A stretch of DNA of 28,168 nt from a virus (IMGVR_UViG_3300027908_000023:70369-98536), one strand, 5' to 3'. Shown: positions 3,885 to 28,168, counted from the first letter of the stretch. Translations and numbers: made by a program. Notes: a model not told the origin generated them from the sequence alone.

Positions 3885-4985
3885 ATGAAGCTCACGATTC
3901 AACTGCAACTGCTGCCAACCAGCGAACAAGCCACCATCCTGCTTGACACGATGGCGCGTGTGAATCAAGCTGCCACGTTCGCTGCGCAGCAAGGCTTTGA
4001 CAACGGCGTTTTCAGCCAACCGAGCATTCACAAGCTCGCCTACCGTGCCATCCGCGATCAGTTCGGCCTGTCCGCTCAACTGGCCGTGCGTGCCATCGGC
4101 AAGGCGGTGGAGACATTCCAGCGCGACAAGACGATATGCCCCATGTTCCGCCCCGATGGAGCCATTACCTACGATGAACGCAACATGGGCTTCAAGGGCG
4201 TGGACAAGGTTAGTCTGAGTACCTTGGCAGGCCGGCAGATCATCGGCATGGTCTATGGTGAGTATCAGCGTGAGAGATTCGACCGCATCAAGGGACAGTG
4301 CGATCTCGTCTACCGTGACAATAAGTTCTTCCTCATAGCCAACGTTGATCTTCCGGAAGCGCCGCCCCTGGAGATCAAGGCGTTTCTGGGCGTTGACCTT
4401 GGCCTCATCAATCTTGCCACGACGAGCCAGGGCGAGATGTTCAGCGGCGAGACGGTGAACCGCACACGCCGGCGTTGTGCGACGGCCAGAAAACAATACC
4501 AGCGGAAAGGAACGCGGAATGCCAAGCGACGATTGAAGAAGATCGGCAAACGCCAGTCGAGGTTTCAGACCTGGCGCAACCACAATATCGCCAAGCAGAT
4601 TGTCCAGACGGCAAAGGCACTTGGATTCGGCATCGCGATGGAGGATCTGACCGACATTCGCGAGCGGATCGAAGACACGGTTGGCCGTAGAACAAGACGG
4701 AGATTCGGCAACTGGAGTTTCCGGCAGTTGAGAGACTTCGTGTCCTACAAGGCACGCCTCGCCGGTGTGCCGGTCTGTCTGGTTGACCCGCGCAATACCT
4801 CTCGCATTTGTAGCAAGTGCGGCTATTGCGACAAGGCCAACCGCAAGACTCAGGATCGGTTTCTCTGCCTGCACTGCGGATTCTCCCTGAATGCCGACCT
4901 GAACGCCGCTGTCAACATCTCGTTGATAGCTTGGGATGCCTTTGTAAACCATCCCGAAAAGCAGCAGTCTTGCGTCTTCTCTTAA
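3885..4985 (+). CDS. tnpB: RNA-guided endonuclease TnpB
   Basis: MKLTIQLQLLPT start; RuvC-I GVDLG, RuvC-II IAMEDL, Zn finger CSKC/CLHC, RuvC-III NADLNAAVNI; DED triad intact. Confidence 0.95.
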   Translation: MKLTIQLQLLPTSEQATILLDTMARVNQAATFAAQQGFDNGVFSQPSIHKLAYRAIRDQFGLSAQLAVRAIGKAVETFQRDKTICPMFRPDGAITYDERNMGFKGVDKVSLSTLAGRQIIGMVYGEYQRERFDRIKGQCDLVYRDNKFFLIANVDLPEAPPLEIKAFLGVDLGLINLATTSQGEMFSGETVNRTRRRCATARKQYQRKGTRNAKRRLKKIGKRQSRFQTWRNHNIAKQIVQTAKALGFGIAMEDLTDIRERIEDTVGRRTRRRFGNWSFRQLRDFVSYKARLAGVPVCLVDPRNTSRICSKCGYCDKANRKTQDRFLCLHCGFSLNADLNAAVNISLIAWDAFVNHPEKQQSCVFS

Positions 4986-7256: not shown

Positions 7257-7963
7257 TAGCTATCTCCTTTATCCCCCACATACTTCCCGGCGATCTCCAG
7301 ACACCGTTCCACCTTCCCAAGATCCAGCCTGTCTTCTTCGTCCCGAACTCCCGACTCCATGTCAACCCAGATTTCGCGCTCACCGACCACCTGCTCCAGT
7401 CTCTTGAGTCGCTCTTCCAGGTTGTCCGGCGATAACCCACCCGCATAGCCACACAAGAGATCCTCTGGCGGCGCGGGGTCTTCCCTGGCTGCCACGCCTT
7501 GACCACCCGAGGCATCGAAAAGCACACTGGCCTTGCCACCCTCCAGAATCTTCCGTGCCAGCACCAGCCCGGGTTGTCGATAGCTGCCGATCTGAATGAT
7601 GTATTCAGGTCCTGGTGCCAGACAAGCCGCGACGGCTTTCATGTCCGCGATCTTGTTCATCGAACGCGACACGTTGAGCTGCACCCTCTGATAGCGCGCC
7701 AACCGGATAGCGAGCGGCCACTCTCCCGAGCAGATGTCCATGACGTACCGGCCGCAAAGATGCGCGGAGATGTTCAGGAGATGCGCGTCCATCGCGTAGA
7801 ACTTCTCGCGCCATGTCAGTGATGGATAACGCGCCTTGCCGGAGCGTGAATCAGAGAAGAGGATTCCCCACTCCACATAGGGATAGCGTTCCGAGAGGGC
7901 GAACAGGTCCTCATGTTTCACCTGATCATCGGCACCGCTGAACGTGACGTGACGAAGTTTCAT
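7256..7963 (-). CDS. PRAI(TrpF)-like TIM-barrel phage protein
   Basis: VTFSGAD, EWGIL, AHLCG, LFDASGGQG, GYAGGLSPDN, WVDMESGVR; phosphate-binding end resembles PRAI. Function unknown. Confidence 0.7.
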   Translation of the reverse strand: MKLRHVTFSGADDQVKHEDLFALSERYPYVEWGILFSDSRSGKARYPSLTWREKFYAMDAHLLNISAHLCGRYVMDICSGEWPLAIRLARYQRVQLNVSRSMNKIADMKAVAACLAPGPEYIIQIGSYRQPGLVLARKILEGGKASVLFDASGGQGVAAREDPAPPEDLLCGYAGGLSPDNLEERLKRLEQVVGEREIWVDMESGVRDEEDRLDLGKVERCLEIAGKYVGDKGDS

Positions 7964-8595: not shown

Positions 8596-9086
8596 TTCCT
8601 CACGAGAATATCGATTAACCTCTCAGCATCGCTGCCTGTCATACCGTTCATGCCGAACGTCTGCACCAGTTGAATTCCGAACTGACCGTATCCCAGGAAG
8701 TCCGGCTCTTCATCTGAGAGATCATCGACCGCCGCATAATGTTTGACTTCAAGATGCTTGTCGAGCCAACGCCGCGCCAGAGCGCCACGATGATATGGCG
8801 GCCGCGACTCTGGATCAAAGTCTAAAATGCCGATGATCGGACTGTAATCGTCGCGGAGCCAAAGCAAGCCATGAGTGCGCAACAAGTATTGGAAGCCACC
8901 CAGCCTCATGCTTTCGCCCAAGACCATGTAACGCCATGCCGAACTGATAACGAGACGGCAATCGGTCTGGCGAATCACATGGTTCAGATGGTCAATGCAA
9001 TGAGCGTCGATGCCGCAGATGCCGGAATCGGCATGCTTGGCATGGTTGTTCAACACACCGTCCACGTCGAGAAATAGCGCTTTCAT
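8592..9086 (-). CDS. HAD-family phosphatase (Swiss-Army-Knife RNA-repair-type HAD domain)
   Basis: LFLDVDGVLN (DxD), VISSAWR, YAAVDD, and the G(L/M)T C-terminal motif. Confidence 0.85.
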   Translation of the reverse strand: MKALFLDVDGVLNNHAKHADSGICGIDAHCIDHLNHVIRQTDCRLVISSAWRYMVLGESMRLGGFQYLLRTHGLLWLRDDYSPIIGILDFDPESRPPYHRGALARRWLDKHLEVKHYAAVDDLSDEEPDFLGYGQFGIQLVQTFGMNGMTGSDAERLIDILVRK

Positions 9087-13649: not shown

Positions 13650-15032
13650 TCAACGTGAACGATGCCGAACTGCCGGAGCGCTATACGCTCCATGCGCTCC
13701 GCTTGCAAGTGCAACTCGCGTGAGGTTGCCTCCAGACGAGCCACCTGATCCATCATGGGGTAGTGTCCTAACAATGCGTTGCCGGGTAGTGTCCTTACAT
13801 CGCGTTGGCGACTTCGGACTTCCTGTTTCATCGGATCGGCTTACCTCCCCGGACGTATGCCCGGTTCGACAGAGGCCGATTCCTCCACAGTTCGCGCCGA
13901 CCACTCTCAGCGCGCGAGCGTGAATCACCATACCGGAGGCTCTATCTCTCTCACAGCAGAGCCCACAGGGACAATTATGGAGACGCTCATTGAGACTCTT
14001 GTACTTTCTTGCACCACAAGCCGGGCAGTCCTGGCTTGTGTATCTCGCGTTCACTCCGATCGCATGACGGCCAGCGTTTGCAGCTTTGCTCGTCAGCAGC
14101 CGGAGGAACGATCCCCAGGCGGCATCGTGGATGGACTTGGCGAGAGGCGATCTGCACATGCCGCGAATGTTGAGATTCTCGAAGCCGATCAGATTGTACT
14201 GATTCACCAAACGACGCGCGGTCTGATGGGCGAAATCTCTACGCTGAGCCTGAATGCGCTCGTAATGCCTGGCAAGACGCCTGACCGCCTTGCGGCGGTT
14301 CCGAGAGCCTTTCTGCTTGCGGGATACCTGTTTGTGCAGGTGTTTGAGCTTCCGCTCAGACTTGCGATAGAACCTGGGATTCTCAATCTTGTCGCCGTTT
14401 GCCAGGACGGCGAAGGTCGTCAGGCCAACATCAAGGCCAGTGCTGGTCTGGAGAGACTCAACAGGGATTTTCTCCGGGATCTGGATGCCAGTATCGATGA
14501 CGACCTGAGCATACCAGCCGGAGGCACGATGGATAACGCGAAGCAACAACTGCTTGGCAATCGGTCCGGTGTCGAACATGCCGCGAGCCGTGACTTCGCC
14601 AAGAACCGGAATACGGATCGCGCCATCATGGATGTAGTTGCCGTGATGAAGATACTCCATCGACCGATAGCGATGATGGGCGCGGAACCTCGGATAACCC
14701 GGTTTCTCGCCAGCCTTGAGGCGACGGAAGAAGGCATCCATGCCTCGATCCAGACGGCGCAGCGAGTCGCGCAGGAAGACGACCGGAACCGGAGTCAGCA
14801 TCGGAATATGGGCACGCCAATCCTTCAGAATTTCGCACTGCCGAACAAAGCCGATGGATTCCTTCCTGCGCTTGTAGGCTTTTGTCCTCATCTCCAGCAT
14901 CTGATTGTAGGTCCAGCAACACGCGCCAAGCCAGGATTCAAGAGTATCTTCCTCTGTCTTGGACAGATAGAGCTTAAATTCCAGTGTCTTCTGGATCGTC
15001 CGGAGACCAGAGGCTTTCTTCTTTCTGTACAT
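13650..15032 (-). CDS. tnpB: RNA-guided endonuclease TnpB; the ORF reads out through the TIR
   Basis: KTLEFKLY, GYPRFR, RuvC-I GLDVGL, RuvC-II IGFENLNIRGM, DAAWGSF, Zn finger CPAC/CPC, RuvC-III ERDRAS; no in-frame stop inside the element. Confidence 0.93.
   Translation of the reverse strand: MYRKKKASGLRTIQKTLEFKLYLSKTEEDTLESWLGACCWTYNQMLEMRTKAYKRRKESIGFVRQCEILKDWRAHIPMLTPVPVVFLRDSLRRLDRGMDAFFRRLKAGEKPGYPRFRAHHRYRSMEYLHHGNYIHDGAIRIPVLGEVTARGMFDTGPIAKQLLLRVIHRASGWYAQVVIDTGIQIPEKIPVESLQTSTGLDVGLTTFAVLANGDKIENPRFYRKSERKLKHLHKQVSRKQKGSRNRRKAVRRLARHYERIQAQRRDFAHQTARRLVNQYNLIGFENLNIRGMCRSPLAKSIHDAAWGSFLRLLTSKAANAGRHAIGVNARYTSQDCPACGARKYKSLNERLHNCPCGLCCERDRASGMVIHARALRVVGANCGGIGLCRTGHTSGEVSRSDETGSPKSPTRCKDTTRQRIVRTLPHDGSGGSSGGNLTRVALASGAHGAYSAPAVRHRSR
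13785..13900 (-). ncRNA. putative omegaRNA scaffold overlapping the tnpB 3' end
   Basis: CTGTGGAG...GATGAAACAGGAAG motifs of the kind I recognise at tnpB 3' ends, then hairpin GTCC-GAA-GTCGC-CAAC-GCGAT-GTAA-GGAC; boundaries approximate. Confidence 0.55.
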
Positions 15033-15039
15033 GGACGGA

Positions 15040-15068
15040 AGTTTACCAGATGGGCGGAATGGTGTCAA
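15040..15068 (-). promoter_or_regulatory. sigma70 promoter inside the element, probably leaderless tnpB mRNA
   Basis: TTGACA (15068-15063), 17 nt ending TGG, TAAACT (15045-15040); 7 nt to ATG at 15032. Confidence 0.7.
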
Positions 15069-15182
15069 GGGCGGTTGGGAGAAAAAATCAACGCGATGTT
15101 AGGACACTACCCATCATGGCATCGAACAGGTTCAAAACACCGAGAGGCGTCAAGAGGATTTTCCCTTCCGTCTTCATTGCCA

Positions 15183-20660: not shown

Positions 20661-21193
20661 GTTGCAATCTTCCTCCCATTGCACTGGCTGTTGTTACCAC
20701 GGATCAGGTACAGGTCTATCCGCTGACCATCGGGGGTTGCAATCTTCCTGCCATTGCACTGGCTGTTGTTACTATCCAGAATCGGCAAATCGCGCCAACC
20801 TTCCAACTCTTCGCCTGGATGAATACGGATACTCAATCCTCTGGCCACCAAATCAAAGCGGCGATCAGATTCCTCTCGGCAAGGCCGTCGTGGTCCTGGA
20901 TAAACTTCGGCGCTGCGAACTGTTTCCCAGAAGCCATGAACCTTGGCGAATTTGTCCTTGCCGTCCAGCAGAATACGCTCTACTTCGATCTGTCGTAACT
21001 CCTTCAACAACGACAAGAGTTCTTCAGCATCATAGTCCGCTTCAAACCAGGATGCCAGCAGGCGAACCGCCGGGAAACCATAACCATCAACAACCTGGAG
21101 GTTAAACCCGTGTGGCTTCGGATCGTGAAAGATCAGCAGATTGAGCGCCAGCAACTCTTGCTGAATGGCGCTGACGAGTTCCGCTTCGCTCAT
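20609..21193 (-). CDS. hypothetical protein reading through the mini-array
   Basis: Start MSEAEL after GAGGAG; the repeats translate as NNSQCNGRKIAT twice. Confidence 0.55.
   Translation of the reverse strand: MSEAELVSAIQQELLALNLLIFHDPKPHGFNLQVVDGYGFPAVRLLASWFEADYDAEELLSLLKELRQIEVERILLDGKDKFAKVHGFWETVRSAEVYPGPRRPCREESDRRFDLVARGLSIRIHPGEELEGWRDLPILDSNNSQCNGRKIATPDGQRIDLYLIRGNNSQCNGRKIATSQQTLAGTVACSSVRA
20661..20772 (-). CRISPR. mini-array: two type-B repeats and one 38-bp spacer
   Basis: Repeats 20661-20697 and 20736-20772, GTTGCAATCTTCCT(C/G)CCATTGCACTGGCTGTTGTTAC; the second is identical to 27845-27881. Confidence 0.9.
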
Positions 21194-24504: not shown

Positions 24505-24608
24505 TTTCATTTAGTATTTTGCAGTTTGCATTTTAGATTTTGCATTGTTCAGCACATGGCTTGATGAATGCAAAATCTAAAATGCAAACTGCAAAATACT
24601 GAATGAAA
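24505..24608. repeat. 104-bp heptamer-built palindromic element, copy 2 (42-bp arms, 41/42 complementary)
   Basis: Arms 24505-24546 and 24567-24608, 20-nt loop; first 28 nt identical to copy 1. Confidence 0.92.
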
Positions 24609-24690: not shown

Positions 24691-24727
24691 GTTGCAACCT
24701 TCATCCCGTTACACCGGGCATTGTTAC
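24691..24727 (-). CRISPR. solitary CRISPR repeat (type C)
   Basis: GTTGCAACCTTCATCCCGTTACACCGGGCATTGTTAC, identical to 27995-28031 and 28070-28106. Confidence 0.92.
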
Positions 24728-26374: not shown

Positions 26375-27256
26375 CTATTGCTCCTCAGAAAGATTCCTTG
26401 CCGGCACATGAAGCCTCATCTGCCCGGCCTTGGTTACCTTGCGCGTGATGACTCTGCCGTCACTGAGTTTACCAGCGCCGGCACAACCCAGCGCCTCGAT
26501 GATTCGACACTTGTAAGATTCCCTGGTGCGTTCCATCTCGCTGAGTTGTTCGCCGAGTCCCACATAGGCATCGGCAACTTCTTCCATCTCTGTATCGAGT
26601 TCTATACTCTTTGTTTCGTCTGGATGAAAGAGCAAGTTAAGTATTTTCGCCGTGTTGGGATGTTGATAATCGAACGCTGGCGGCTCCTGCCGGCAAACCC
26701 TATCCCATAACTCTGAGGCAGCGGTCAAGAGCAGTTGCTGTATCTCTTGATTGCGCTCCACGGTATAGATTCTAAAATCGCTGCCGCCAACCAACACCGC
26801 GACATCGACGCTCTCTATCTCCAACTCCACAGCCGAAAGCATCTGCCATTGTGTCTGGCAAAAGTAGTATTCAGGAACCTGATCGGTTCCGGGCGTACCC
26901 CAACCTTTGCGCTCGTCAGTGCGCTTAATCTCGACAAACTTTCTCTCGTTCCTGATTCCACGGTCGGGTGTGGAGATGACCCAACGGTGTTCAGGGTGTC
27001 TTAGAATTGGCGGATCAAACTGGAACAACTCGTGGCCGGTTTCCAGAGCGTAGACCTGTGCGATGACATCTTCCAGGAGCCGGCCCCACTCCATTGAGGG
27101 ATTGTCGTAGTCCAGCGACTTTCCCAGCTTGTCGGCATATACGTCAAGTGGTCCACCCCAACTTGGAGGAGCCAGGCCGACCACCTTGGCGATCTCGGAA
27201 GCGCCGATGCCGCTACGGCGTTCGGCTAGCCAGATCGTGCGCTGTTCAGGTGTCAT
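26375..27256 (-). CDS. YqaJ/lambda-exonuclease-family recombination nuclease
   Basis: WLAERRSGIGASE, WGRLLE, STPDR, VEIKR, YFCQTQWQM. Confidence 0.95.
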   Translation of the reverse strand: MTPEQRTIWLAERRSGIGASEIAKVVGLAPPSWGGPLDVYADKLGKSLDYDNPSMEWGRLLEDVIAQVYALETGHELFQFDPPILRHPEHRWVISTPDRGIRNERKFVEIKRTDERKGWGTPGTDQVPEYYFCQTQWQMLSAVELEIESVDVAVLVGGSDFRIYTVERNQEIQQLLLTAASELWDRVCRQEPPAFDYQHPNTAKILNLLFHPDETKSIELDTEMEEVADAYVGLGEQLSEMERTRESYKCRIIEALGCAGAGKLSDGRVITRKVTKAGQMRLHVPARNLSEEQ

Positions 27257-27615
27257 CTGGTTCCTACTCCATGCAGTTCCTTGAGAAGATCATCTATCAC
27301 CAGTGCCAGTTCTGCTGCCGCATCCTCTAATCTTGTTGTGTCCCACCATGCAGCGAAAATGCGAAGTTCTCTTGAAGTATTATGCCAGAGCCAGCAGCGA
27401 TACTCCAGACGAAACGCCTCGGGTTTTCCCTTGCCGTGATAGATCAGGAATGCGAAGGGATCAAGTGCGCCGATCGTTCCTGAGTTGTTTTCGATCAACC
27501 ATTTTCCCTGGCAGAGCGCCATCTTGTGCGTGCCATGAAGCAGATCAAGCAGAGATCGCAGGGTCGGCACTGAGACATCCGCTGCCAGCTTCGCGAAGGC
27601 TTTGGGGCCGGTCAT
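27253..27615 (-). CDS. hypothetical protein
   Basis: GAGG RBS; ATGA coupling to the YqaJ gene. Confidence 0.55.
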   Translation of the reverse strand: MTGPKAFAKLAADVSVPTLRSLLDLLHGTHKMALCQGKWLIENNSGTIGALDPFAFLIYHGKGKPEAFRLEYRCWLWHNTSRELRIFAAWWDTTRLEDAAAELALVIDDLLKELHGVGTR

Positions 27616-27698: not shown

Positions 27699-28168
27699 GG
27701 CGCAACCTTCAGGCCGTTGCACCGGCCATTGTTACGCATCGGGGGCCATTTTGCCATACTTCTCAATCCTGCAGTTGCAACCTTCAAGCCGTTGCACCGG
27801 CCATTGTTACTGCAACGGCTTGAAGGTTGCAACAACTGAGCAGAGTTGCAATCTTCCTGCCATTGCACTGGCTGTTGTTACGAGGCGTCGGTTCGACTCT
27901 GATACCTCACCCGACCGCTGCGTTGCAACCTTCAAGCCGTTGCACCGGCCATTGTTGCCGTGAATCGCCCGCTGACCGGATTGACCAGATGACAGTTGCA
28001 ACCTTCATCCCGTTACACCGGGCATTGTTACGCCGCTGATAACGCTTGGACGACCGTGGCGCAGATCAGGTTGCAACCTTCATCCCGTTACACCGGGCAT
28101 TGTTACTTTGTACCGTTTTGCCCGTCCGGTGCGCGTCTCAATGTTGCAACCTTCATCCCGTTACACCG
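27699..28168 (-). CRISPR. CRISPR array with heterogeneous 37-bp repeats (at least 7 repeats, 6 spacers), cut off by the window end
   Basis: Repeats start at 27699, 27774, 27845, 27922, 27995, 28070 and 28143 (partial); spacers are 38, 34, 40, 36, 38 and 36 bp. The degenerate repeat at 27699 suggests the trailer end, so transcription on minus (repeat ends ...GAAGGTTGCAAC). Confidence 0.95.

Follow-up and report, generated by a model that had tools for sequence, protein, structure and literature searches.

An inverted copy of the repeat scaffold occupies an old spacer slot of a Cas12m-like CRISPR array in a soil phage and may mask the last guides in cis

The stretch of DNA analyzed here, in the following called the window, comprises 28,168 nt and forms the end of a 98.5-kb virus record in IMG/VR, which belongs to a soil phage of ~132.6 kb in total. 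The genes of the window make up a phage replication and recombination module, and its final 470 nt (27699-28168) are a CRISPR array with repeats of 37 nt. The array is interrupted by the end of the 98.5-kb record and is continued in the 132,578-nt ENA scaffold L015 (scaffold_31), where it extends for another ~450 nt beyond the window up to a leader and a Cas12m-like gene. The full array comprises 14 repeats and is a mosaic of four repeat variants. On the plus strand of the window the repeats follow each other in the order A', A, B, A*, C, C, C, with C and D types past the window end, so that there is no simple A/B switch at the position for which one had been proposed. The spacer of main interest, s2, is 34 nt long, the remaining spacers 36-40 nt. 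The features of the region are given below in window coordinates, except for the effector gene.

26375-27256, minus strand: RecE/YqaJ-like exonuclease, located after the 120-aa gene
27253-27615, minus strand: gene of 120 aa, 82 nt downstream of the array and co-directional with it
27699-27735, minus strand: terminal mutated repeat A', with the 3' end GCGCC instead of GCAAC; the conserved A(-2) is gone
27736-27773, minus strand: oldest guide, spacer s1 (38 nt), with a self-match in the phage genome over the 29 PAM-distal nt
27774-27796, minus strand: scaffold half of repeat A and one arm of the hairpin (positions 15-37 of the transcribed repeat, equivalent to -23 to -1)
27797-27810, minus strand: 5' 14 nt of repeat A, the hairpin loop (GTAACAATGGCCGG on the minus strand)
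27811-27833, minus strand: anti-repeat, the PAM-distal 23 nt of the s2 slot and an exact inverted copy of the scaffold half
27834-27844, minus strand: the 11 nt unique to s2, its PAM-proximal seed end (TCTGCTCAGTT on the minus strand)
27845-27881, minus strand: repeat B, which would provide the scaffold of the s2 guide
27882-28168, minus strand: younger part of the array with s3, A*, s4, C, s5, C, s9, C, the last C being cut by the record end
L015:6455-8629, plus strand: Cas12m-like effector of 724 aa (P0121), just beyond the window end, with no Pfam hit

A further contig, L014, is the remainder of the same ~132.6-kb phage. It was also considered as a competitor phage targeted by s1; this was rejected, as both its array ends and the flank are identical in L015. 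In L015 the block s9-s10-s11 is present twice together with its repeats (L015:8859-9114), either as a true duplication or as an effect of scaffolding, and both the IMG/VR record and L014 break within this region.

Five observations support transcription of the array on the minus strand of the window, as the first-pass annotation had guessed, with a start at the leader beside the 724-aa gene. The effector gene is directed towards the array, with ~10 nt left between its end and the first repeat, and in this gap there is a sigma70-like promoter (TTGAAT-17-TAGAAT), which is a weak, consensus-only match. The mutated repeat A' lies at the far end; the equivalence of its lost adenine with A(-2) is taken from the Cas12m2 crRNA (PMC10442227). 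In the relative L018 the array is likewise found downstream of its gene and co-directional. Moreover, the G-U pairs of the repeat helices exist on the minus-strand RNA only and become A-C mismatches on the other strand. In this orientation s1 is the oldest and s2 the second-oldest spacer. Compared to repeat A, A' carries three changes within the 23 nt that are paired by the anti-repeat. A terminator was not found between the array and the 120-aa gene.

The effector P0121 aligns with Cas12m structures in the PDB (23vw, E 4.6e-36; UnCas12m4a, 6e-6; Cas12m2, 0.02). The alignment retains the zinc-finger CxxC...CxxC and DQD motifs, while RuvC-I has an N instead of the first aspartate (GVNLNWR vs AIDLGWR). 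N-D-D variants of RuvC have been described for DNA-binding, non-cutting Cas12m (PMC11013384). Homologues of P0121 carry PF07282. Its nearest relatives are 26-34% identical, have 554-608 aa, which makes P0121 ~140 aa longer, and are located on phage-like contigs. From its sequence, the phage thus appears to encode a divergent type V-M-like CRISPR system that, judged by its family, would bind DNA. The repeat network had been called cas-less in the earlier reading, which does not apply to the whole phage since the Cas12m-like gene adjoins the array. A search of the 98.5-kb record for Cas1 found none, and genes called in another ~28 kb contained no Pfam domain of Cas1, Cas2 or Cas4. For Cas12m effectors a tracrRNA was tested for and none was found, and they use a single crRNA of 50-60 nt (PMC11013384). 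By analogy, the RNA requirements of P0121 are presumably those of the Cas12m family.

Type V-M systems (PMC10442227, PMC11013384) resemble the present one in the homologous effector with an altered RuvC-I residue, in adaptation genes not being seen, in the co-directional array with repeats of 36-37 nt and in the 3' pseudoknot-type scaffold with an AC tail. They are plasmid- and prophage-borne (PMC11656645), and the system described here is carried by a mobile element, too. However, type V-M effectors have ~580-610 aa compared to 724 aa here, where identity to the nearest relatives is 26-34%. Their PAM is 5'-TTN, whereas the candidate flanks here read CCT. In contrast to type V-M, four repeat variants are mixed in the array, and mini-arrays and solitary repeats are scattered among the replication genes. 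Viral mini-arrays and solitary repeat units (Racr) have been described in the context of competition between viruses (PMC11656645); as in our phage, phage-borne repeats are combined with spacers that are seemingly aimed at other phages. Unlike in the Racr-type cases, an own effector is encoded here instead of that of the host being borrowed, and the anti-repeat unit has no counterpart there.

On the minus-strand RNA the repeats form the helices 10-13/20-23 and 15-20/30-35, which are followed by an AC tail. When the seven repeat variants are compared, 98-100% of cells of these helices are paired, and the positions 10/23, 13/20 and 20/30 show compensatory changes. A comparable arrangement is known from the Cas12m2 crRNA, in which a helix of -22 to -17 with -8 to -3 is followed by A(-2) and C(-1) (PMC10442227). 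The anti-repeat at 27811-27833 (TGCAACGGCTTGAAGGTTGCAAC) is complementary to 27774-27796 in 23 of 23 positions, with 14 nt between the arms, and its span coincides with the -23 to -1 scaffold of the following repeat. Its complementarity to repeat A* (27922-27944) is just as complete. In a scan allowing three mismatches it was the sole minus-sense copy of the repeat, and dinucleotide shuffles gave 0 matches. Accordingly, the exact 23-nt reverse complement of the start of repeat A with its 14-nt loop, as reported before, was confirmed and is not expected by chance. The remaining 11 nt (27834-27844) had been described as matching no repeat junction in the window, and this was found to hold for the 98.5-kb record and ~28 kb more of the phage as well. 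Outside the array no other anti-repeat longer than 13 nt was found in ~126 kb of the 132.6-kb phage. As a side observation, nine of the 11 unique nucleotides of s2 (CTGCTCAGT) recur in the array repeat of L018 (GCAACAAGAGCTGCTCAGTGC...), which is probably chance.

The unit is real DNA and not an assembly artefact, because other assemblies, and a unitig whose depth is that of the phage, show it unchanged. It is identical in L015 and in the 2.5-kb contig L017 (JGI 3300001471), so that, with the IMG/VR record, three assemblies agree. L015 and L017, together with the Logan contig L016, were retrieved by way of the neighbouring RecE/YqaJ-like protein. Besides, a 100-nt Logan unitig spans 27774-27873 with 0 differences and has a depth of 16 compared to 16.6 for the flanking phage contig. 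The unitig comes from Logan contigs of two soil runs that look like one data set filed twice. The sources are perhaps related soil samples, and their support is independent of the assembly and not of the population. A fold-back chimera from library preparation or assembly has almost no probability left: amplification can yield short inverted duplications and one Logan contig (L016) ends inside repeat A just before the unit, but three identical assemblies and a full-depth unitig come with no reported alternative path and a normal repeat B follows the unit in register.

For the 71-nt unit a 23-bp hairpin with -42 kcal/mol and a z-score of -6.8 is predicted, compared to -13.8 kcal/mol for repeat A alone, and this hairpin is retained in the in silico minimum-energy fold of a 236-nt context. 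The pairing should be fast, because the anti-repeat is transcribed first and lies only 14 nt away. As modelled, the duplex of 23 bp would abolish the pseudoknot scaffold that is bound by Cas12m-type proteins. Similar effects are known from other types, as repeat-pairing hairpins block both binding and processing by Cas13b (PMC13187072). The crRNA of s1 is consequently predicted to be lost or reduced. The same probably applies to that of s2, because positions 12-34 of its guide would sit in the duplex. In principle, an effector that is bound co-transcriptionally might outcompete the hairpin.

The explanation that we prefer, and to which we assign about equal chances of being right or wrong, is that the scaffold was copied in inverted form, by accident, into an old spacer slot of the V-M-like array of the phage, and that masking of the last guides in cis is the predicted effect. 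In the transcribed sense s2 is composed of 11 nt of ordinary spacer sequence (18 nt, if the match described below is real) and of 23 nt of the inverted scaffold half. An accident at the DNA level inside the array would have made the unit. This may have been a template switch during replication, seeded on the palindromic repeat end GTTGCAAC, which would have overwritten the PAM-distal part of a normal spacer. Alternatively, a stretch of array DNA could have been captured as a prespacer, and we consider both origins to be about equally plausible. In the pre-crRNA the anti-repeat would be made just before repeat A and would zip with it into the 23-bp hairpin, which would hide the pseudoknot scaffold needed for Cas12m-type binding and processing. 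The s1 guide, and probably the s2 guide, would mature poorly or not at all. The two oldest guides would thus be masked in cis by the unit, which would be neither a tracrRNA nor a working anti-CRISPR guide.

Since the repeat end is the palindrome GTTGCAAC, pairing between this end and a spacer containing GTTGCAA is possible in either orientation. In IMG/VR, the 5' end of a gene (L011/L012, two contigs of one phage) agrees with s2 over the first 18 nt of the spacer (TCTGCTCAGTTGTTGCAA), and this match ends inside GTTGCAA. Its 5' flank is CCT, as is that of the sole other credible protospacer, which belongs to s12 and lies in L021 (a 22-nt match with codon-level similarity beyond, as read from the sequence). 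This CCT flank is based on two cases and differs both from the TTN of known Cas12m and from the TTC of L018. The match in L011 is suggestive and may be chance, with ~0.2 hits expected for a 20-nt pattern according to a rough estimate. A template switch would be expected to exchange the distal part of a normal spacer for an inverted copy of the repeat, a pattern that agrees with s2; this is suggestive and not proof. The replaced part could be dispensable, as it lies beyond the 17-20 nt used by Cas12m; in Cas12m2 the heteroduplex of guide and target has 17 bp only (PMC10442227). The complementarity of 23/23 beside the decayed A' fits a recent event and equally fits selection for pairing. For s9, s10 and s11 there was no hit in IMG/VR, and nothing but noise came from BLAST comparisons of the array with GenBank phages and PLSDB plasmids. 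A second spacer matching the records L021, L011 or L012 was not found.

The kind of mechanism that we propose is known, and what is new is its placement in the spacer slot of a phage Cas12m-like array. Leader-repeat hairpins have been described for type II-A (Liao et al. 2022) as well as for VI-B and others (Migur et al. 2026, PMC13187072). There, pairing between a repeat at one end of the array and another part of the transcript prevails over the fold of the repeat itself and prevents binding or processing by the effector, which is likewise predicted here. However, the pairing sequence in these systems is part of the leader, is imperfect and conserved across many systems, and masks the first repeat of guide-repeat arrays. 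In our case it is a perfect inverted copy of 23 nt in a spacer slot, it concerns the last repeat but one in a type V array, where the repeat precedes the guide, and it is known from one phage. Engineered Cas12a arrays are a further comparison. In these self-processing type V systems, folding of a spacer with the adjacent repeat is reported to reduce the yield of the guide that follows (CRATES, PMC6610086; array separator, PMC8478413). The pairing there is fortuitous and partial, whereas the complementarity described here is natural and covers the whole scaffold.

If the masking is true, a natural control at the level of the guide is written into a spacer slot. It would extend the leader-repeat hairpins of types II-A and VI to type V and to a phage-borne, DNA-binding system, and it would show that palindromic repeat ends can rewrite spacers. 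A unit that is merely the product of miscopying would be a curiosity in the evolution of arrays. The context is a soil phage of 132.6 kb with a divergent effector of 724 aa, an array of mosaic type and, scattered elsewhere, mini-arrays and solitary repeats. Together with the self-targeting spacer of L018 described below, the phage context points to phage CRISPR systems that serve silencing and self-regulation.

Self-matches were found in our phage and in a relative. The 29 PAM-distal nt of s1 match L014 at 8633-8661, while the 9 PAM-proximal seed nt differ. The site in L014 forms the 3' arm of a hairpin of 19 bp, at a distance of 5 nt from a solo copy of the terminal inverted repeat of a TnpB-carrying element (window 13751-15119); the mismatch of the seed could mean escape by rearrangement. 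In the distant relative L018, a phage-like JGI contig, the first spacer of the array matches the opposite strand of the Cas12m-like gene upstream of it in 36 of 36 positions with 5' TTC (L018:2900-2936 and L018:3243-3278), which makes it a candidate for autorepression by a non-cutting effector. As far as can be judged from these sequences, self-directed silencing seems to be used in this family of Cas12m-like proteins.

The first-pass annotation had offered a cis silencer of processing as one of three options. As a predicted consequence of the unit this option stands, based on the RNA folding and the Cas12m literature. As a selected function, with the anti-repeat being maintained to hold the terminal guide or guides off, it is unlikely in our view, and it is the main rival of the accidental copy. 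There are two possible reasons for such a function. [quoted passage not shown] The silencer might also toggle, as the upstream repeat A* is equally complementary and two partners, A and A*, are therefore possible. The perfect pairing of 23/23 next to a decayed terminal repeat and the exact cover of the -23 to -1 scaffold agree with selection. Moreover, the masked s1 is the sole spacer with a significant self-match (29 nt), the first spacer of L018 fits its own effector gene in 36/36 positions with a TTC flank, and the mechanism has a published precedent (PMC13187072). Nevertheless, the seed of s1 (its first 9 nt) already mismatches the self site, so that there would be no obvious gain, and the terminal repeat is already mutated, which is the usual solution for repeat-guide arrays. 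The array of L018 is also without an anti-repeat, and relatives for a conservation test were not found in the collections searched. In IMG/VR no close relatives of the effector were found, and most contigs with distant homologues end directly behind the gene. The nearest relative of the RecE-like protein is 45% identical, and no array was found at a distant RecE-like relative. The more specific view that the anti-repeat is a selected built-in anti-scaffold, which would keep chosen guides (the self-matching s1, or s3 via A*) off or conditional, is less probable again; if it were true, the spacer slot would serve as a regulatory RNA element of the array.

Behind this ranks the capture of a repeat-spacer junction, either of a competitor or of an earlier A-type array of the phage itself, whose crRNA would direct the effector to an array; we consider this CRISPR-against-CRISPR option quite improbable. 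The source would read TGCAAC...GTTGCAAC followed by AACTGAGCAGA, i.e., an A-type array with a spacer beginning AACTGAGCAGA. The length of the unit and its position in a spacer slot agree with a capture, and the spacers of the phage appear to target other phages, as s12 does in L021. Besides, in type I-E adaptation arrays can serve as hot spots from which spacers are captured. However, the search for the junction that had been proposed was carried out in IMG/VR, JGI metagenome contigs, GTDB genomes and the full array of 14 repeats, and none of them contained it. A 20-nt junction pattern had two hits only in IMG/VR, both in coding sequence without a repeat. This absence is weak evidence against a capture, because the whole repeat family was seen only in this phage and is missing from all other contigs of these collections. 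In IMG/VR there were 0 hits both for the 23-mer of repeat A and for a degenerate pattern of the repeat, the search of GTDB genomes resulted in one chance hit in a coding region beside a protein-synthesis operon, and that of JGI metagenome contigs returned one contig, L014 of the same phage. Further arguments against a capture are that neither Cas1 in the 98.5-kb record nor a Pfam hit for Cas1/2/4 in ~28 kb more was found, that the guide's own hairpin would hinder loading, and that the 18-nt match to a phage gene offers an alternative source of the seed.

Outside the array, the phage encodes TnpB-family proteins, which are of interest for the last alternative.

Window 13650-15068, minus strand: ISDra2-like TnpB-family gene of 472 aa (PDB 8h1j, E 1e-45)
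Window 3885-4985, plus strand: TnpB-family gene of 366 aa, closest to Cas12f structures (9nzq, E 3e-26)
L025:1325-2431, minus strand: third TnpB-family gene

The 366-aa protein belongs to a family of >4000 proteins annotated as IS605 OrfB. It had been suggested that the unit is a built-in tracr-like anti-repeat, in which anti-repeat, loop, 3' end of the repeat and s1 form a fused guide that is needed by the Cas12m-like or a TnpB/Cas12f-like protein. We regard this as very improbable. The order of anti-repeat, loop, repeat and spacer does mimic an engineered sgRNA, natural sgRNAs encoded by phages exist for Cas9 (bioRxiv 10.64898/2026.06.01.729453), and with the 366-aa gene (~3885-4985) a TnpB/Cas12f-like protein is present. 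However, the effector beside the array is Cas12m-like and this family needs no tracrRNA (PMC11013384). Moreover, the 23-bp duplex would remove the very pseudoknot that these proteins read (PMC10442227). An upstream structured scaffold is absent, and neither a promoter- nor a terminator-like site of its own was found in the unit. The TnpB-like proteins belong to large IS605 OrfB/TnpB families with their own guide RNA at the gene end and are located 13-23 kb away. Besides, a perfect duplex of 23 bp is unlike the known imperfect anti-repeat pairings. In a search of the unit against Rfam no family was found, and only generic hairpin models of miRNA precursors appeared below the threshold. Compared with tracrRNA, tracr-L and vsgRNA (bioRxiv 10.64898/2026.06.01.729453), the unit likewise joins anti-repeat, repeat and guide in one RNA, and vsgRNA is phage-borne as well. 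These RNAs, however, serve tracr-dependent effectors (Cas9, some Cas12), are located outside arrays and have extra effector-binding stems, whereas here the family is tracr-independent and the duplex would abolish the scaffold. Accordingly, complementarity to the repeat is present (23/23), while a separate gene outside the array and a tracr-dependent effector family are not.

The dispersed repeats of the phage showed some further features. A B-type mini-array and solitary C and B repeats (window 20661-20772; 24691-24727; record 7773-7809) are intergenic and co-directional with the genes and with the main array. If they were processed by the effector, long transcripts of replication genes would be cut. 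A solitary repeat B (L014:4764-4840, identical to L024:9770-9846) is followed in the transcribed direction by a 40-mer with GGTTCGAGTCCTGG, which by eye resembles the T-arm and the 3' part of the acceptor of a tRNA. ARAGORN and Rfam found no tRNA beside this repeat; the tRNA-like 40-mer might be the core of an attachment site or a guide directed against a tRNA gene. Just upstream of the solitary repeat C there is an AT-rich inverted repeat of 47 nt (window 24505-24608), which is 94% complementary with a loop of 10 nt and represents a possible origin or operator.
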